DNA from: an uncultured virus (IMG/VR IMGVR_UViG_3300035520_000308)
Lineage: Duplodnaviria; Heunggongvirae; Uroviricota; Caudoviricetes
Strand: one strand, 5' to 3'
Length of the DNA stretch: 20,000 nucleotides
IMG/VR virus record: IMGVR_UViG_3300035520_000308
Shown: one piece after another, positions 2,140-18,222 of the stretch
Layout: every line of letters begins with the position of its first letter
Position numbering within the stretch: the stretch's first letter is position 1
Position numbers and translations under genes: made by a program
Notes under the pieces: model-generated
The model's database searches: none
What the model was told of the DNA's origin: nothing
The model's input: only the letters and a program-made list of their open reading frames with translations

Positions 2140-2556
2140 TTACCTCCCTGTACTTCCAAATCCATTGTTTCCACGTTCTGTGTCAGACAAATCATCAACA
2201 ACTTTCATTTCCGCTTTCAGAATCGGCAAAATCACAAGTTGGATAATCTTGTCACCCTTTTCAAAAATGTAATTCATATTGCTATTGTTATACAGTTTCA
2301 CTTTGATACTTCCAGTGTAACCACAATCAATCACTCCCTCGCCTGTGATATCATGATTCACATTAAGTCCACTCTTGCTTTTCAGAAATCCAACATACCC
2401 GTCTGGAATTTCTACATGAACGCCTGTGTCAATGACTTCGCTTTGTCCTCCCTCAAGAAGAAAATCATGTGGTGTACGCAAATCATATCCCGCATCTTCC
2501 TCATGTGCCTTTTCTGGCATATACGCTCCATCATCAAGTTTTACGTTAATCGTCAT
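2140..2556 (-). CDS. dut: Trimeric dUTPase
   Basis: All five motifs: AGYDL, KSKSG, GVIDCGYTG, DKIIQLV, RGNNGFGSTG. Confidence 0.96.
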   Translation of the reverse strand: MTINVKLDDGAYMPEKAHEEDAGYDLRTPHDFLLEGGQSEVIDTGVHVEIPDGYVGFLKSKSGLNVNHDITGEGVIDCGYTGSIKVKLYNNSNMNYIFEKGDKIIQLVILPILKAEMKVVDDLSDTERGNNGFGSTGR

Positions 2557-2576
2557 TTTTTAAACTCCTTTTAGTT

Positions 2577-3461
2577 TTATGCAATGTCATTCTCAAATTC
2601 AATGCCATATTCTCTGCACTTTTCGACTAACTCATCAAGGCTCTTTCTTCCAAGATTTCTAATTTGCATAAGTTGGCTTAAACTGTAATCTTCAAGTTGG
2701 CGCGATTGAGTAATTCCTGCGCGCTTAAGGCAATTATATGCTCTTACGGATAAATTCATCTCCTCGATATATACGTTAGGGATAGGTACATCAAAACCGT
2801 CTTTGTTTAATTTTGCTATTTCTGCAAGTTTTTCTGTGCGTTCTTTTATGTCTTTTAATCTATTTGCGCTTTTTACCGTTTCTGCACACCTTTTCCGATA
2901 TTCTTCCTCGGCTCTTTTAATCTTTTCTTGATAAGCCTTTTGCTCATCAATGATTTGTTGATACTTTTCAAGATATTCCTTGCCGATTGTAAATATTTTC
3001 ACTCTGTTTGGGTGACGCAATTTTCTATGTGCCTTATGTTCAACTTGTCGTATTCTCTCTCTTGTGACATTAAAAATCTTTCCAATTTCCTCATACGTCA
3101 TACCGTCTTCAAATCGGTAGCGGACTATCTTTGATTCTCTGTCCGTAAGAGTTTGCAATGCAAATTCATAGCACTCGTCAAAATCAGATGCATATGCAAC
3201 TTTGCCATCAAATACAGTATTTAAAAACTTCTCTTTCCAGTCGTATTCGATTTCAACATCTGCAACTGGAATATCCTCTTTGTACGCCCATTCTCTACGC
3301 ACAAACTCTCTAAACTTGTCTGAGTTAATATTTTCCAATCTACAAGCTGATTGTTCACTTTCTCCACTCTCAACATGTTCAACGATATTCAACATACGAG
3401 TAAGGATATCTTTTGCGTTTGCATAAATCTCTTTCTTTTGCACTTTTTGCTTTCCTGCCAT
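2577..3461 (-). CDS. Fusion of sigma70 region 4 HTH, coiled coil and RNA polymerase alpha C-terminal domain
   Basis: [30 protein letters not shown] (SigA r4.2-like) and [19 protein letters not shown]...[12 protein letters not shown] (RpoA CTD-like). Confidence 0.9.
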
Positions 3462-3492
3462 ATATCTCTATCCCCTTTCGGCAACCAAAAAT

Positions 3493-4545
3493 TCAATCAT
3501 CATCCTTTTCGTCTATTCCTCCATAACAAGTCCTGTAAAACAGATTCTCAATTATGGTATCATTCCAGAAATAGCACAATGTCTTGTCTATTTCTCCGTC
3601 AAATCCACCTCGCTTGTTATATTCCGTGTTAAAGAATTTGTCTATCATCATGCGATAGCTTTCAATTATCTCGTCCTCTTCCATCGTTGCCAATAGTTCT
3701 GTTGGCTCTATATACTTCCTGACTAACTTCTCTATCGTTTCCGGTTTCAGAAATTTATGCGGTTTTCCAAGCCTTAATTTATATTGTTCGCAAAAATATG
3801 AGACTATATTGACAAATTCTTCTGTCTTAGATTTGCTATCTTCCACACATTCAGATTCTATGTACTGCTCTGCTATGTTCTTCACATACTTCATGTCTAG
3901 TCCTTTGTTCGGTTTGGTTTCAGAATCAGAAAAAGCATAAGATTCTTTCTTTTTCTCTTTGGAAAAAGCATTATTATATTTATTTTCCTTTGGAAAATCA
4001 TTATAGGTATTCTCTGTATTGTAATCTCTGTTATTGTTATATATATTATATATATTATTATAAGGCTCTGTCACATTGTCTGATTCCATTCCGTCATTTT
4101 GTCTGTATCTGGAATTTTCATTGTCTTTTGTCTCTTCTTTTTCTTCTCGATTTTGTGATTCTTCTGTATCTTCTCCTGCAAGTTTTTTCAGTAATTTTTT
4201 CAGTTCGTCTTTATTTATCGTATACCAGTTTGGTCTTTTAGTCCTGTCTTCGCTATAATCTCCTACGATGATAAGATTCTTTTCTCGCAAAGATTTAAAT
4301 GCTCTCTCAATTGTCTTTTCAGAAAAAAACGGAAAGTTATCTTCTTTCCATTGTTTCATGGAATTATATACCCAGTATTTTCCATCTCGGAAATTTCTGT
4401 TTTCAGATTCATTATGTTCTACCCAGTAATAAACTTGCCTTAAAACGATTGTCTCATTTAGACCAATTTCTGTTGCTAATTCCGTGTTTACTGGGATGTT
4501 GTTTTTACTCGACAAGAGCAATTTTATGTAGTCACTCATTTTCAT
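3493..4545 (-). CDS. Phage replication initiator / replisome organiser-like protein (N-terminal wHTH); true start may be ATG 4539
   Basis: IGLNETIVLRQVYYW...WVYNSMKQW...FPFFSEKTIERAF...WYTIN N-domain, low-complexity Asn-rich linker, AGGAGG SD. Confidence 0.75.
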   Translation of the reverse strand: MKMSDYIKLLLSSKNNIPVNTELATEIGLNETIVLRQVYYWVEHNESENRNFRDGKYWVYNSMKQWKEDNFPFFSEKTIERAFKSLREKNLIIVGDYSEDRTKRPNWYTINKDELKKLLKKLAGEDTEESQNREEKEETKDNENSRYRQNDGMESDNVTEPYNNIYNIYNNNRDYNTENTYNDFPKENKYNNAFSKEKKKESYAFSDSETKPNKGLDMKYVKNIAEQYIESECVEDSKSKTEEFVNIVSYFCEQYKLRLGKPHKFLKPETIEKLVRKYIEPTELLATMEEDEIIESYRMMIDKFFNTEYNKRGGFDGEIDKTLCYFWNDTIIENLFYRTCYGGIDEKDDD

Positions 4546-4598
4546 ACCTCCTGTGTTGATATTAAATGCCCACGCATATTTCCTGTGAATTATAAAAA

Positions 4599-4652
4599 CA
4601 ACGGACAGGCAATCACAGGTTTTGCTTTTCGCCCCGTCGGGCTATTCCGTTG
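4599..4652 (-). ncRNA. 3-way-junction leader RNA A (c4-like architecture) upstream of replication initiator
   Basis: CAACGGA/TCCGTTG closing stem, GCCC-GACG-GGGC hairpin, GAAAA, GCAA-AACCTGTGA-TTGC hairpin; loop complementary to downstream sites including the SD. Confidence 0.6.
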
Positions 4653-4664
4653 GTTTTACCAATT

Positions 4665-4886
4665 TTACAGATAACCGAGATTTTTTAGTCCTTGCATAGC
4701 TGAAGTCAACCCATTCTTGCTTATGCCATGAAATTTTGCTTTCTCATCGTCATTTGCAAACTGAATGTCGTTGTATTTTTCAACTCCAAGTATAAATCTC
4801 TGTTCTGGTGTAAGTTTCGTGTCGTAAAACACGCTTTCTGGAATAAATATTCCTTTACCCTGTTTCTTAAACTCTGTTACTGTCAT
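4665..4886 (-). CDS. Small winged-HTH-like protein (73 aa)
   Basis: AAGGCGG SD; IFIPESVFYDTKLT...SAMQGLKNLGYL resembles N-termini of phage replication HTH proteins. Confidence 0.6.
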   Translation of the reverse strand: MTVTEFKKQGKGIFIPESVFYDTKLTPEQRFILGVEKYNDIQFANDDEKAKFHGISKNGLTSAMQGLKNLGYL

Positions 4887-4926
4887 AGCATTACCGCCTT
4901 TCTTGTAATCTGCCTTATCAACATTA

Positions 4927-4983
4927 TGGCAAGGAAGCGACTAAGGCTTGTCGCTTATCGTGTTGCAATCACTATCCCTGCCA
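4927..4983 (-). ncRNA. 3-way-junction leader RNA B (same architecture as A)
   Basis: TGGCAGGGA/TCCTTGCCA stem (G-U on minus strand), GTG/CAC hairpin, AGCGAC-AAGCCTTA-GTCGCT hairpin. Confidence 0.6.
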
Positions 4984-4986
4984 GAA

Positions 4987-5045
4987 AGGAGATGCGGGAT
5001 TTGCACCCACGCATTTTATGTTCTGGCTAACTGAACTAATCTCCT
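4987..5045 (-). ncRNA. tRNA-like element 1 with no anticodon arm
   Basis: AGGAGAT/ATCTCCT 7-bp acceptor, TA, GTTC-AGTTAGCCA-GAAC D-arm, 9-nt linker, GTGGG-TGCAAAT-CCCGC T-arm. Confidence 0.75.
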
Positions 5046-5271
5046 GAAATGCCTCTATGGCTTTGTATTTTCAATTTTTAGACCTGCTTTCACTATTGGT
5101 CGATAATTTACCATCCGCAATAAAAACGTGCCTTAAAATCGAAATTTGAGTGGTTTCAGACAGATGTAGTAGGCGAAGAAAAGAAAATGGGACTACACCT
5201 GTCAGCATTATTTTGTTTTCGACAGCCTGTAACCGCAAAGTCACTGTCTAGTCGGTAATGAGCCGACAGAT

Positions 5272-5421
5272 TGCTATGGTTGGGACTTGCACCCAACAAT
5301 GTAGTTTTGATACGCAAGAAAAGTTTTGTGTGTTTCCTCCTACTCACTGGCTCATCAATATTGCACTACTTCAATTCTCTGTAACAACGTATCAAATAGC
5401 GTCTTATTCCGCCACATAGCA
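5272..5421 (-). ncRNA. tRNA-like element 2 with long insertion in place of the anticodon loop
   Basis: TGCTATG/CATAGCA, TG, GCG-GAATAAGA-CGC D-arm, TTTGATACG/CGTATCAAA stem around a ~70-nt insert, GTTGGG-TGCAAGT-CCCAAC T-arm. Confidence 0.75.
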
Positions 5422-5552
5422 ATTTGATGAATGAGGTTTCCAACTGGAAAGTTTTTTAAATAGCACTTATTACCCGTGACCATCTCGACCTCGCGCAACC
5501 AGTTGACATTATTTTTGGTTTTAGCAGCCTTAACCTCAAAAGTACGCTGCCA

Positions 5553-5662
5553 TTTGATGAAATTTTTGATTATCTGGACTATCAGATAATCATTTCCGAA
5601 CTCTCACCCAGCAAACTTTATAGTCAAAGAGTAATGCTAGTTACGTGAGATTATTCATCAAA
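5553..5662 (-). ncRNA. Structured RNA: 3-way junction with complementary hexaloops
   Basis: 9-bp closing stem; 10-bp perfect hairpin with loop ATAGTC; second arm with loop GACTAT (exact reverse complement). Confidence 0.65.
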
Positions 5663-5812
5663 ATCATGGTATGTTTCTTATACAACCCATGCATTAATTC
5701 TGTCTACCACATACCAGCCAAACAAAATCTTTTACGGAGCTGAAAAGAATAAAAAACAAATTTCTGTAATGCAGAAATTAGATTCCTTTTCTACACTTGG
5801 TAGATAGGGAAT

Positions 5813-5886
5813 GCGCATAATGAGAATCGAACTCATGCTTCCAAACGCTGCCTCATAGAGGCGGACAGAATTACTGCCGTATGCGC
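5813..5886 (-). ncRNA. tRNA-like element 3 (74 nt; aberrant D and anticodon arms)
   Basis: GCGCATA/TATGCGC, GCAG-TAATT-CTGT, GCCTC-TAT-GAGGC, ATGAG-TTCGATT-CTCAT canonical T-arm, discriminator A. Confidence 0.75.
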
Positions 5887-5964
5887 GCCAATCAATTTTG
5901 AAAGGAATTTAAATGAAAAAATGTTTGCCCTCTGACACTGCGCGGGGTTTTGACAGTATCAGAT

Positions 5965-6059
5965 AGTTGCGGTTTGGATTTGCACCAAACAATTTGAGGA
6001 TGTGAATCACTTTCTCAAGGCTCTTCAACATTTGTGTTTACCTTTTCCACCACGCAACT
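5965..6059 (-). ncRNA. tRNA-like element 4 (Leu-like D-arm, no recognisable anticodon arm)
   Basis: AGTTGCG/CGCAACT, TG, GTG-GAAAAGGTAAA-CAC, GTTTGG-TGCAAAT-CCAAAC. Confidence 0.75.
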
Positions 6060-6457
6060 ATTTTGTCCATTTTATGACTATGTGGATGCATAGGATTTAA
6101 CTGTCTCAGAGGAGTATCCGCCGGTGCTACCGACTTGCAGGAATCAAACCGCCCGCCCAAGCTATAAGGACTAGACCACTATGTTTGCTCTTGCCAGTTT
6201 TACAGTTTACTCTGTTTGACAGCTATGCGCTCTGCCAAAGCGTGATAATCCATTCTGATTATACAATCTGTCTGTGATATCACTCACCGACTTTGAAATG
6301 GATTACTTCTTAGGTGATTATACGTTTGTCATACGGATTTTAACGTCTTTTTCTGACGGTTTGTGGTATATTATTCCGTGACGTCTTTGGATAACATCCT
6401 CTTCCGACGGACAACTAGCACTCATCCCCATTAATATACAGGAATGACCGTCAGAAA

Positions 6458-6521
6458 TGGCAATCCGGAGAATTGAACTCCGGTCCTATGAGTTATCATC
6501 GCGCCCATACACCAATTGCCA
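6458..6521 (-). ncRNA. tRNA-like element 5 (64 nt; shrunken D and anticodon arms)
   Basis: TGGCAAT/ATTGCCA, TG, GTGT-ATGG-GCGC, ATGA-TAAC-TCAT, CCGGAG-TTCAATT-CTCCGG. Confidence 0.72.
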
Positions 6522-6612
6522 CTAAAAATGATTAAAAAGGAGGTCCGCCAAATAATAAAATTTATCTGAACGAATAGTCATTATGGAGCTTGAATCCATC
6601 ATGACCTTTTGG

Positions 6613-6741
6613 CTATTTCTTCTTCTCCTTGTACCCGCTTGCGTATATTGCCCTTGCCTGTTTCTCGGCTTGACTTTTTGTCTTATATGTCTTTCCGGTA
6701 TTTCCAAACTTGTAACCGGATTTTGTTTTATGTACTGGCAT
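6613..6741 (-). CDS. Small basic phage protein, 42 aa (MPVHKTKSGYKFGNTGKTYKTKSQAEKQARAIYASGYKEKKK)
   Basis: GGAGGTG SD 7 nt before ATG 6741; below ORF-track cutoff. Confidence 0.8.
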   Translation of the reverse strand: MPVHKTKSGYKFGNTGKTYKTKSQAEKQARAIYASGYKEKKK

Positions 6742-7133
6742 TTCTCATCACCTCCGTGTAGTTATCATGTAAGGCTTATTTATATTGTTCCAATATAGAA
6801 ATATTATAGTTTATATGAGTTATGTATTAATATTGGATGTGTTAATGGAGTATTTATATATTATAATAAGCCTCTTTTTGTTTTTGAGAAAATTTAAGGC
6901 ACTAACTAGGCGCGATTTTCGGCACTCGGAAAACCCCTGTACCGGTCATCTGCGCCGGCATCTGTCCCCATGCTCCGTTCCATTGTTGAATTGTGTGAAT
7001 TTTAATTCAATTCACCTCATATGCCGCCTATATAGCGGTTAAACAATAATTTATCTGCTAAAACCATGATGTGAAATCACTACAACCCTTGATTTTGCTG
7101 GGGTTTGAATTGTGTCTAAATTGTACATGGCAT

Positions 7134-9925: not shown

Positions 9926-10153
9926 ATGATTATAAAAGCAAGCGATTTAAAAGTTGGCACACAGTTAGCAGAGGCAGACGGATTTTTATTTGATGTGGTA
10001 GAAATTTTAAATGAGACAGAAAAATCTATAACTGTTAGATTGTGTAGTGATTTTTCCAGTTTTGAAAGCCATTGGAGAATTAAAAAAGACGGAACGCAAG
10101 GTGGCGTTGTAAAGACATTTAGAAAGTCAACAAGGCTTTATGGAATGAATTAG
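9926..10153 (+). CDS. Early hypothetical protein (possible SH3/KOW-like barrel)
   Basis: AAAGGTGG SD; IKASDLKVG N-terminus. Confidence 0.8.
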   Translation: MIIKASDLKVGTQLAEADGFLFDVVEILNETEKSITVRLCSDFSSFESHWRIKKDGTQGGVVKTFRKSTRLYGMN

Positions 10154-10201
10154 GCAAGGTCAGGCGGTGGCGGCTCCGGGGTTCGACTCCCCGGCTTGCT
10201 T
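10152..10201 (+). ncRNA. tRNA-like mini-element (acceptor, small D-like hairpin, T-arm)
   Basis: AGGCAAG/CTTGCTT, GTC-AGGCGGT-GGC, CCGGGG-TTCGACT-CCCCGG. Confidence 0.7.
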
Positions 10202-11896: not shown

Positions 11897-12679
11897 TTAT
11901 TCTTCTTTGAATAGATTTAATATAAATCGTCTTCCTGTCTGCGTTATCCTCCTGTAATAGATAACACATCCATTATCTAAAACTTCCTGTTTGATATCTT
12001 CATATCCTAAATTACTGTAATCGGAATATAATACCCATGTTCCATTTACTTTGTACTGGAATTTCTTTTCAGAAAGTAATCTGTTTAATTCTTTTGCAGA
12101 TTTAAGATTCAGTTCCTTTGCGATTTCTGTCATTGTGTATGTTTTATTTACATGGGTTAGTATTGCATTCTTCTTTTCTGCCTCTACCCTTGCTTCTCTT
12201 TCTTCCTTTAACTTTGTCAGAAGTTCTATTCCAAAATCCGGATTGTTAAGTATGTTGTCAATTACGTTATCCGTGGCATAAATACCATGCTTTCTAATGC
12301 TAGGGATAATTTCGTCTGCCACAAGTGCTTGAAACTTCTCCGCTGTTTCATTTTTAGCTTTCATGGCTAGGCGGTAGAATACGTTTTCTGGTATGTAATC
12401 CGGTCTTTTCCCATCTTGTCGGGAATTTTCCCCCACTTGTGGGGGAAAGCCTATTTCTCCAAGATAATCGTCCACTCTCTCCCAACGAATAGAAACATAT
12501 TCAGTTCCGTTTTTGTTTTGCGTTTGTGTAAATCCCAACCCTCTAGCTACATTTTCAAGTTTTAAATAAGCAACTCCGTCTTTCTCGTAGCAATCCACAC
12601 CGTTAATTGTAAAAAATTCTTTTTGCGCTTTGCCCGCACAAGAGGTTTTATCCTTAGTCGTAAGAGCAGTGTTTCCCAT
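11897..12679 (-). CDS. Phage antirepressor (Bro-N-like plus KilA-C-like)
   Basis: YIPENVFYRLAMKA...FQALVADEIIPSIRKHGIY, NPDFGIELLTKLKEER, TEIAKEL...ITQTGRRFI. Confidence 0.88.
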   Translation of the reverse strand: MGNTALTTKDKTSCAGKAQKEFFTINGVDCYEKDGVAYLKLENVARGLGFTQTQNKNGTEYVSIRWERVDDYLGEIGFPPQVGENSRQDGKRPDYIPENVFYRLAMKAKNETAEKFQALVADEIIPSIRKHGIYATDNVIDNILNNPDFGIELLTKLKEEREARVEAEKKNAILTHVNKTYTMTEIAKELNLKSAKELNRLLSEKKFQYKVNGTWVLYSDYSNLGYEDIKQEVLDNGCVIYYRRITQTGRRFILNLFKEE

Positions 12680-16881: not shown

Positions 16882-18222
16882 TTAAAAAGTGACAAAACGA
16901 ATCTCAATTTCATCGCCATTTATCACTATTTTTTCGATGCATTCTTTTAGAATTTTGTTCCTTTCTTGAATGCTTAGAATATCAAATGCATCAGAAATTC
17001 TCTTGATTTCATCAATGCTTTTCTTGTCACATTTCATGTCCCTTGATTTTTCTTTTTCAAGTTCCTCTTCCAGATTCTTCAATCTCAATTCTTCCTCTTG
17101 GATTAAGCTAAAGAGATTTTGGCTGTCGTTTTCTGCGTACAAGTTATAGAATTTCTTGATTTTTGCATTGGCTTTCTTGATTGCTTTTTCTATTTCATCT
17201 GCGTTGCTTTCTCTTTTCTTTGTATCATTTAGATTTATCAGAAAATCACCATAATTGGAAATTACTTCTCTTTCGACAGCATCCGCACGGACACAGTTAT
17301 CACAATCTCTGCTACGTTTCATGTATTCCTTTGTGGAATTGTAATGGGAATAGCATACCAGTTTGTGGTAATTCCCCCATTTCTGATACCGCATCCTCGC
17401 GCCACATTTTCCGCAAAAACATAATCCACTAAGCAGATGATTGTTTGTAATGTATGCATTTGTTGTCCTTTTCTTCATCTGCTCTTGCGTTTTTTCAAAG
17501 GTCTTCTTGTCGATGATAGGCTCATGCTTTCCCTTGTACATTCTTCCCTTATATTCGATATAGCCAATATTTGTTTTGCGTATCAGAATTTGATGTACAA
17601 TTCTTTCTCCCTTGAATCCCAACAAATCAGATATCTTATCGCAAGAATATCCCTCCAAATACATATGGTATGCTTGCCTCACATTTTCTGCCTCTTCCGG
17701 TACGATATGCAATATTCCATCGTTTCTGTCGTATCTATATCCGTATGGTGTTCTGCCACCACCCATCCAGTAACCTTTTTTAACGCGCTCAACCATTCCT
17801 GCTCTTGTCCGCAGATAAATAATTTCGCGCTCATACTGGTTTACAGCGGCATTCATAGTAATCATGACTTTATCCATCGGCGTGTCAGTTCTGATTTCTT
17901 CCGTCATGGATATAATCTTAACTCCGTACATCGGAAGAATTTCATACAGTAAATCCAATGTATCTTTCGTATCACGGCTAACTCTGTCTAGCTTATACAC
18001 ATAAACCCTATTGATTATTCCTCTTTTTGCATCGCTTAATAGTTCCTGCACTGCCGGTCTTTCCAACTTTGCACCACTATATCCACCATCTACATACCAC
18101 CTGCTGATAGTGATATCGTTTTTTTCGCAATATTCAGTTATTTCCTCTCTTTGCAAATCAAGTCCATACTTCTCAACCTGTGCGTCCGTTGACACTCTTA
18201 AATATGCAACATCTTTTTTCAT
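16882..18222 (-). CDS. Large serine recombinase/integrase
   Basis: YLRVSTDAQ catalytic Ser, DGGYSG, VYKLDRVSR, PYGY, HEPII, LSGLCFCGKCG Zn ribbon, coiled coil. Confidence 0.96.
   Translation of the reverse strand: MKKDVAYLRVSTDAQVEKYGLDLQREEITEYCEKNDITISRWYVDGGYSGAKLERPAVQELLSDAKRGIINRVYVYKLDRVSRDTKDTLDLLYEILPMYGVKIISMTEEIRTDTPMDKVMITMNAAVNQYEREIIYLRTRAGMVERVKKGYWMGGGRTPYGYRYDRNDGILHIVPEEAENVRQAYHMYLEGYSCDKISDLLGFKGERIVHQILIRKTNIGYIEYKGRMYKGKHEPIIDKKTFEKTQEQMKKRTTNAYITNNHLLSGLCFCGKCGARMRYQKWGNYHKLVCYSHYNSTKEYMKRSRDCDNCVRADAVEREVISNYGDFLINLNDTKKRESNADEIEKAIKKANAKIKKFYNLYAENDSQNLFSLIQEEELRLKNLEEELEKEKSRDMKCDKKSIDEIKRISDAFDILSIQERNKILKECIEKIVINGDEIEIRFVTF

Follow-up and report, generated by a model that had tools for sequence, protein, structure and literature searches.

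Introduction

Two kinds of RNA shaped like transfer RNA (tRNA) are already known from settings close to the one described here: the tRNA-like stable RNAs of phage tRNA clusters and the tRNA-like Y RNAs. Species I and II of phage T4 resemble tRNAs at their ends and pass through the same processing machinery. The mascRNA and the t-elements of plant mitochondria are non-decoding tRNA-like structures that direct cuts by RNase P and RNase Z and set the ends of neighbouring RNAs. The present work concerns a cassette of five tRNA-like modules, M1 to M5, at positions 4,927 to 6,521 of a DNA stretch of 20,000 nucleotides (nt), referred to throughout as the window, from an uncultured virus of the Caudoviricetes (IMG/VR record IMGVR_UViG_3300035520_000308). 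Base-pair conservation across relatives supports the view that the acceptor, D and T stems of M2, M3, M4 and M5 are selected for pairing in RNAs that do not decode.

The T4 RNAs appear as 'RNA species I and II' in the maps of the tRNA regions of T4, T2L, RB1 and RB3 (PMC2330249, in part). They are small stable RNAs that lie among phage tRNA genes and are co-transcribed with them, and their likeness to the modules is drawn from description only. They differ from the family here called beta (M2 and M4), which has a defined leucine-tRNA-like frame and occurs in Firmicutes phages and metagenomes. YrlA of Mycobacterium smegmatis is cut by RNase P and has CCA added (PMC4201824, in part). RNAs of this type (RF02553) share with the modules a tRNA-like D arm, T arm and acceptor without decoding, and a Ro60 gene lies adjacent to them, also in phages (PMC4201824, in part). 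Their topology is opposite, as in YrlA a loop caps the acceptor and both ends of the RNA lie in the Ro-binding stem, whereas the modules end at the acceptor and have a closed insert. A Ro60-type neighbour gene is found beside beta at three related loci (L001, L145 and L139), whereas the window has no Ro60-fold gene. In the engineered tRNA scaffold an RNA of interest replaces the anticodon arm, and the cell processes and stabilises the product as a tRNA (PMC3753655, in part). The layout of beta is the same, with the difference that the scaffold is a laboratory design and beta is known here from sequence alone. ROOL, GOLLD and skipping-rope are non-coding RNAs found near tRNAs in phages and prophages (PMC5737381, in part); they are not tRNA-shaped and none is present in the window, although ROOL and skipping-rope accompany beta in phages A9 and Goe24, respectively.

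A literature search found no description of beta, only general statements on tRNA-like RNAs (PMC10690425, in part), and an equivalent without a name may be present in the supplements of PMC5737381 and PMC10690425. As far as these searches go, beta, the second family alpha, the altered elbow of beta, the use of a single frame for inserts that vary and the Ro60-fold neighbour of the DUF2828 family are not described.

Five tRNA-like modules in 1.6 kb

A preliminary description of the window placed five co-oriented modules with perfect acceptor stems of 7 base pairs (bp) in the cassette. All five are found on the minus strand by a scanner that accepts only modules with 7/7 acceptor pairs (G-U counted as a pair), a 5- or 6-bp T stem and a loop of 7 nt matching T[TG][CT][AG]ANN. 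R1 and R2 below are the models of the beta and alpha families.

5045-4987 (-): M1, 59 nt; acceptor, D arm GUUC/GAAC and T loop UGCAAAU
5421-5272 (-): M2, 150 nt; beta mimic, insert of about 100 nt closed by a 9-bp stem; R1, 72.4 bits
5886-5813 (-): M3, 74 nt; gamma, a four-arm tRNA-like RNA
6059-5965 (-): M4, 95 nt; beta mimic, 43-nt insert; R1, 69.0 bits
6520-6459 (-): M5, 62 nt; alpha mimic; R2, 58.8 bits

On the minus strand of the 20 kb the scanner reports five closable T arms, all of them within 4987-6520, and on the plus strand a single site (10177). Two hundred dinucleotide-preserving shuffles of the 20 kb give a mean of 1.48 sites on both strands together (standard deviation 1.26, maximum 7), and thus five modules in 1.6 kb of one strand, where about 0.06 would be expected, lie far beyond chance. 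A stricter scanner retains three of the five, against a mean of 0.44 in 100 plain shuffles. Each module has a 7-bp acceptor, a D arm and a T arm with its T loop, and minimum-energy folds reproduce these frames; the fold z-scores of M1 to M5 (-3.07, -1.36, -2.93, -1.03 and -1.76) are modest taken alone. A standard anticodon arm (5-bp stem, 7-nt loop, U33 and purine 37) is present in none of them, in line with the arm having been described as deleted, shrunken or replaced: the anticodon domain is deleted in M1, reduced to a small hairpin in M3 and M5, and exchanged for a variable insert in M2 and M4.

Standard annotation tools find little here. ARAGORN calls no tRNA and no tmRNA in the whole window, and Rfam 15 at gathering thresholds reports int-alpA alone, with no tRNA. 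When the filters are relaxed over 4400-7000, M1 alone passes the tRNA model RF00005 (39.6 bits, gathering score 29); M2 to M5 have no match to that model at E<=10, and M2, M3 and M4 match no Rfam family at this threshold. M5 has a weak mascRNA-like match of 20.5 bits, which is not taken as homology because it falls far below the gathering score of 42.5; mascRNA and the t-elements are, besides, eukaryotic or organellar. YrlA (RF02553) has no match at E<=10 in 4400-7000, ROOL and GOLLD have no covariance-model match in the window, and the tmRNA model RF00023 reaches 12.1 bits where its gathering score is 47. At acceptor position 3 no module has a G paired with U, the alanine identity pair (G3:U70) of tmRNA. 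The cassette was also said to lack a credible open reading frame (ORF). This is borne out: no ORF of at least 50 amino acids (aa) lies in 5420-6521, and the best PHROG match of the four ORFs of 53-100 aa in 4728-5419 is no better than E 0.0075, which leaves them without a convincing family.

The beta family

The modules had been thought to be all unlike in sequence, which is incorrect for M2 and M4; these are paralogues within the one family named beta. Its layout runs from the 7-bp acceptor through UG, a 3-bp D stem, the insert and a 6-bp T stem with the loop UGYAAAU to the 3' acceptor strand. The D loop has 8-12 nt and the pattern GAAWARG(UA)RA, and both M2 and M4 fit this definition. The insert stands in place of the anticodon and variable arms and is about 35 to 150 nt long, with no fold common to the family.

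A scan of viral sequences with the D-arm 19-mer gave 16 matches, 14 of which could be closed to give the complete frame, with a perfectly complementary acceptor particular to each. L143 and L144 were left unclosed by the script, and L144 later scored 42.2 bits with R1 as a short form. The M4 D-arm 19-mer led to 24 loci in metagenomes, with 12 R1 matches above 40 bits. The 16-sequence seed has 256 cells, of which 99.6% pair, and compensatory change is seen in 13 of the 16 pairs, a result reached by none of 500 shuffles. With 35 sequences the proportion is 99.6% of 558 cells, with compensatory change in 14/16 pairs, in an alignment that was built to R1 and hence leans towards the model; slid controls pair at 35-47%. 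All seven acceptor pairs vary on both sides. R1 is specific, in that its best score in 78 unrelated phage loci (212 kb) is 23.6 bits and the ordinary tRNAs of the searched loci give no match at E<=1. Rfam holds no family matching beta.

The D arm of beta is leucine-tRNA-like, as a comparison with the tRNA-Leu(UAA) of L259 illustrates, and an annotated tRNA-Leu of a Synechococcus phage matches beta positions 4-27. Relative to such a tRNA-Leu, beta has lost one D-loop G and has G for U at T-loop position 2. The two loops vary together: the D loop AAG goes with the T loop UGU in 11 of 14 cases, and wherever the D loop reads AGG the third T-loop base is C (17 of 17); of the 35 rows, four are omitted owing to slicing or an unfit D loop. 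This correlation suggests an elbow that is changed yet real.

The idea that such modules are tRNA genes interrupted by introns and spliced to working tRNAs finds little footing in beta. An anticodon stem-loop cannot be rebuilt in the shortest members (86-95 nt), Rfam finds no group I intron or other intron family, and the inserts (35-150 nt) have no conserved boundaries.

Beta lies within co-oriented tRNA arrays, in relatives of the window as well as in complete genomes of cultured phages. It is widespread, its range taking in gut-type and environmental viral contigs, complete genomes and phages cultured on Bacillus subtilis or Brochothrix. The copy of Bacillus phage Goe24 (OM728302.1 31368-31493) occupies an unannotated gap of the tRNA array (73.3 bits), and that of Brochothrix phage A9 is overlaid by gp56, a small annotated ORF (76 bits). 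L259 carries four tandem copies, three of which have the same acceptor stem and frame but different inserts.

Further RNAs were noted at these and related loci. A ROOL RNA (192.8 bits) is located in phage A9 (L268 1305-1868) about 630 nt upstream of beta, with tRNAs between the two, and a skipping-rope RNA (50.9 bits) in the Goe24 array (L267 3670-3740). Serial T-arm hairpins are seen in L017 (2326-2447), where three T arms sit within one closing stem, and two tandem T arms occupy a gap of the Goe24 array (L267, about 2810-2885). From a complete 45.7-kb phage genome, L138 1-4019 has no ORF of at least 110 aa, no ARAGORN tRNA and two beta-type matches; it may be a long non-coding RNA region.

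The alpha family, M3 and M1

Alpha, the family of M5, has an acceptor ending in AUU, then GG, the D arm UGUAWGGNGCA, a variable hairpin, AGGA and a T arm with the loop UUCRANU. M5 fits this layout, with the canonical T loop UUCAAUU, a D loop containing GG, and the anticodon arm shrunk to a 4-bp hairpin with a 4-nt loop. Over six sequences 96.6% of 89 cells pair, and 9 of the 15 pairs change in a compensatory manner. Members have different acceptors and T stems, keep the GG of the D loop and the canonical T loop, and replace the anticodon arm by a hairpin that differs in length and sequence in each. The five seed sequences other than M5 score 64.6-82.1 bits with R2; all non-seed matches are at or below 31.6 bits, and those checked with ARAGORN or Rfam are ordinary tRNAs. 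A first pattern scan for alpha returned at least 118 matches, among which 80 loci yielded two new true members; the rest were chance matches and were used as background. A tRNA that decodes may belong to the alpha family or be its ancestor.

M3 has a 5-nt D loop without GG, an 'anticodon' stem closed to a 3-nt loop and a short extra arm before the T arm. Its minimum-energy fold is a cloverleaf with the 3-nt loop, and forcing this loop open to 7 nt places C at position 33. An orthologue lies at 3561-3633 of L001, a viral contig found through its replication protein (61% identity) and the closest relative of the window by that protein. Both have the same leader, a CG linker and a conserved segment that precedes the T arm; compensatory changes fall in the acceptor and T stems, the four-arm shape is kept, and the D and anticodon loops are non-canonical in both.

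At the syntenic place L001 carries tRNA-Gln(UUG), an M5-like module, an M3-like module, tRNA-Ser(GCU), a 23-nt motif also found next to M3 (motif A, below) and an M2-like module, followed by a gene for a 486-aa protein. A second relative, L015, was found by pattern scan; it is 88.7% identical to the window over 5203-5422 and contains an alpha module, motif A, tRNA-Ser and an M2 orthologue. Homologous loci thus carry mimic orthologues that are mimics too, and the intact tRNA-Ser(GCU) and tRNA-Gln(UUG) of the relatives are sited beside the mimics and do not replace them; the outcome that the preliminary description had set as a refutation is thus not seen.

In M1 a linker of 7-9 nt occupies the site of the anticodon arm, and the Rfam alignment shows 2 nt there in place of 15. 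A metagenome scan with its D-arm 19-mer gave no match, and a viral scan with a 17-mer gave nine, all in protein-coding sequence and none tRNA-like. The claim that the modules are selected mimics and not decayed tRNAs is therefore upheld for M2, M4 and M5 by covariation within their families and for M3 by a single orthologue; M1 is left out of it because no relative was found.

RNA between the modules

The modules had been said to alternate with structured RNAs, and this is supported in part: the spacers fold better than their shuffles, and a pseudoknot motif, read by eye, flanks M2. The spacer at 5423-5812 has a fold z-score of -4.21, with 0/100 shuffles as stable. Other features of the intervening RNA are as follows.

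6060-6458 (-): spacer between M5 and M4, 399 nt; fold z-score -3.22, 0/100 shuffles as stable
5150-5271 (-): pseudoknot motif, copy B; aligned with L015 and L017, pairs read by eye
5433-5590 (5' limit approximate) (-): pseudoknot motif, copy A; read by eye
5785-5808 (-): motif A, 24 nt, directly 3' of M3; hairpin CUAC-CAAGU-GUAG, then AAAAGG
5751-5779 (-): terminator-like hairpin and U run after motif A; read directly

The spacer at 6060-6458 is possibly a structured RNA; a viral scan with a 20-mer gave 0 matches and blastn against the collected loci found no homologue. The pseudoknot motif occurs on both sides of M2 and also in L015 and L017. Copy B consists, in order, of a P1 hairpin, UAG, a P2 hairpin with the loop UUGCGGUU, an A-rich stretch ending in AAUGC, P3 and the tail GAAACCAC, and by eye this tail can pair with the P2 loop. 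In copy A the P2 loop is UUGAGGUU and the tail GAAACCUC, which on the same reading are compensatory relative to copy B and L015 (GCGG/CCGC becoming GAGG/CCUC). The consensus has a P2 loop UUG(C/A)GGU, an A-rich stretch to AAUG, P3 and a tail GAAACC(G/U/A)C. These pairs were assigned by eye only, MAFFT having set one L017 helix out of register, and copy B has no Rfam match.

Motif A is found as an exact 23-mer at 10 viral loci on nine contigs that otherwise have no DNA similarity to the window. It lies at about 3001-3023 of L003-L011, often near terminase genes (L003 and L007), matches no Rfam family and gave one match only in a scan of genome contigs. Past motif A, a hairpin and U run comparable to that at 5751-5779 also occurs in L003, L007, L008 and L011; the consensus terminator scan does not list the hairpin of the window.

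RNA-library contigs, one of which is free of mismatches, span 5986-6350, and a contig of a relative from such a library covers 5205-5267. Two sequencing runs have small shares of the stretch, both as contigs that give no expression level, and DNA carry-over is possible in the RNA library.

A Ro60-fold protein beside beta in relatives

The 486-aa protein of L001 (4317-5777) is a DUF2828/DUF7788/vWA protein (phrog_850, 'RNA-binding protein') whose gene starts 290 nt after beta, and the same order of beta and gene is found in L145 (gene 2411-3961) and in a contig of L139. Among 79 loci with relatives of this protein (L154-L233), 50 have at least one R1 match at E<=0.01, 77 matches in all. Every one of these lies on the strand of the gene, and all except that of L200 lie upstream. 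The gene usually stands at the end of a phage tRNA array.

An AlphaFold model of the protein (pLDDT 83.3, pTM 0.82) was used in a fold search against the PDB, in which the 11 best full-length matches are Ro60/TROVE structures, including a Thermus phage Ro60 (E 7e-7 to 5e-5, TM 0.40-0.56). In a protein-language-model search 26 of 30 named matches are TROVE plus vWA_Ro60, with a score of 0.93. A sequence-profile search against PDB sequences recovers the vWA domain only, and Pfam does not score the DUF2828/DUF7788 protein as TROVE. On the strength of the model, the DUF2828/DUF7788/vWA family (phrog_850) is predicted to fold like Ro60. Literature searches on DUF2828 found no treatment of phages or RNA.

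The association has limits. By tblastn the window has nothing resembling the Ro60-fold gene below E 5. One of ten further beta-carrying viral records has the gene, as do none of the four records rated complete, and none of 24 metagenome loci has it within 2.5 kb of beta. Most of the 50 positive loci form one clade of about 86% protein identity, and the independent lineages are therefore few, about five.

Other RNA elements lie upstream of this gene. In L160 (1667-2464) and the clade of about 86% identity there are four or five further tRNA-like modules with different tRNA bodies, several of which have the anticodon loop replaced by a hairpin (a stem ending in CA, a loop and UG) and then ACAGCAAU. 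Here one insert recurs in several frames, the mirror image of the beta arrangement. Two lineages (L200 2410-2462 and L204 2532-2584) share a conserved element of 53 nt that has a closing stem and a T-loop-like hairpin and lies about 450-600 nt upstream of the Ro60-fold gene.

Genomic setting of the window

The window looks like part of a temperate phage genome, with the following features around the cassette.

16882-18222 (-): serine recombinase
11897-12679 (-): ANT/Bro antirepressor
3493-4545 (-): DnaD-like replication initiator
2140-2556 (-): dUTPase
2577-3461 (-): protein of 294 aa with sigma-70 region 4 and an RNA polymerase alpha C-terminal domain
4582-4652 (-): int-alpA RNA, 52.5 bits (Rfam)

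A blastn search of GenBank phages in distant mode with the whole cassette (1.7 kb around the finding) gave no match. The fusion of sigma-70 region 4 with the alpha C-terminal domain is an unusual architecture among phage transcription factors. The int-alpA RNA is located directly 5' of the replication-initiator gene in the window, in L001 (5908-5976) and in L017 (2676-2743); at these three loci it precedes a replication gene and not an integrase or alpA gene.

The T-arm-like hairpin CCGGGG UUCGACU CCCCGG at 10152-10201 (+) of the window stands directly past the stop of a 75-aa ORF and is closed by GCAAG/CUUGC, with a U run after it. A near-identical copy occurs in L001 (137-238, minus strand) at the syntenic position, on the strand opposite the RNA cassette. 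The element may represent a terminator that has the form of a tRNA 3' half, or else the core of an attachment site.

Possible roles of the cassette

RNase P, RNase Z and the CCA-adding enzyme act on acceptor and T-arm helices. The reading favoured here, and held with middling confidence, sees the tRNA body as a frame for processing and stability in which a variable insert is carried, within a co-oriented RNA operon derived from a phage tRNA array. The array would descend from phage tRNA genes whose bodies were kept for shape and not for decoding. Each unit would probably be cut from a long transcript at its acceptor boundaries and then stabilised like a tRNA; this tRNA-style processing is proposed because all three enzymes recognise an acceptor stem stacked on a T arm. 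The body would present the insert, as a natural counterpart of the engineered 'tRNA scaffold', and the same cuts would free the pseudoknotted RNAs between the units. In some related phages the likely partner would be the Ro60-fold protein encoded just downstream.

A good many observations weigh against this scheme. None of the five modules is followed by CCA, as the preliminary description had noted; this does not discriminate, because the real tRNAs of L001 have no encoded CCA either. The fold z-scores of M2 (-1.36) and M4 (-1.03) are weak. Promoter-like and terminator-like sites are no commoner than in shuffles, and the RNA-library contigs carry no strand, do not end at acceptor boundaries and reveal no cut or CCA tail. 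The variable inserts might be no payload at all but filler that is tolerated. Two exact patterns were used to collect the two elbow subtypes, so the correlation between the loops may stem from a small number of evolutionary events. ARAGORN calls the alpha module of L066, which has a 7-nt loop, tRNA-Gly(CCC), and that of L015 has a loop containing UCCCA; for these reasons alpha may retain a decoding role in some phages and be in decay in the window. The case for M3 rests on one orthologue, and M1, without a relative, could be a recent deletion product.

Among the other explanations, the one that survives best takes the modules as Y-RNA-like partners, in which the body or the insert tethers a Ro60-type ring, or else an effector, to survey RNA or to counter host RNA damage, as in the YrlA/Rsr pair. 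tRNA-mimicking Y RNAs are indeed known from bacteria and phages (PMC4201824, in part). The beta-then-gene order in L001, L145 and the L139 contig, the co-oriented R1 matches at the 50 loci and the Ro60 fold indicated by both structure and language-model searches all speak for it, and two loci with the Ro60-fold gene have weak YrlA matches (28-29.5 bits against a gathering score of 69). The gene is nevertheless missing from the window and from most of the further beta records, the positive loci come largely from one clade, and, as tRNA arrays hold both the gene and beta, this alone could explain their proximity. The opposite topology of YrlA (PMC4201824, in part) and the lack of a conserved Ro-binding helix flanking beta also speak against it. 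For the modules as a whole this role is judged unlikely.

One view of phage tRNAs is that they make up for the damage done by tRNA-cleaving defences or evade these. The modules might be decoys or competitive inhibitors, their acceptor and elbow, without a cleavable anticodon loop, soaking up defence nucleases, tRNA sensors or modification enzymes. The conservation of shape together with the removal of the anticodon loop in every family would suit such a function, as would the several different tRNA bodies in one array (the window and L160) and the position of the modules in phage tRNA arrays. A pure decoy has no need of a long variable insert, however, and no link was found between the modules and any defence system. 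The elbow of beta is moreover non-canonical, with G at T-loop position 2 and one D-loop G lost, and therefore a weaker mimic of a normal tRNA. On balance the decoy role seems rather improbable.

Decaying pseudogenes and intron-interrupted tRNA genes are very improbable overall, and unlikely for four of the five modules, because neutral decay would not keep the compensatory pairing seen in three stems over large divergence among the orthologues of M2, M3, M4 and M5, even though M1 is without a relative yet scores 39.6 bits as a tRNA, the L066 alpha module is called a tRNA and relatives have an intact tRNA-Ser beside motif A where the window has M3.

The processing-frame reading can be carried further, to a scheme that is bolder and correspondingly doubtful. 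One constant tRNA-derived frame, made and stabilised by the host tRNA machinery, would carry interchangeable inserts as specificity modules (guides, aptamers or baits) and in some phages would be read by a divergent Ro60 ring. Arrays such as the cassette of the window and L259 would then form a small programmable library of RNA effectors directed against RNAs or proteins of the host or of rivals.

Significance

Phage tRNA arrays are usually read as a decoding supply, and here a whole array consists of non-decoding tRNA bodies in which the stems and the elbow appear to be selected. The presence of beta in phage Goe24 makes B. subtilis with this phage a tractable model for the role of non-tRNA stable RNAs in phage tRNA clusters. 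A link to the hitherto uncharacterised DUF2828/DUF7788 proteins would widen the theme of Ro proteins and Y RNAs in phages.

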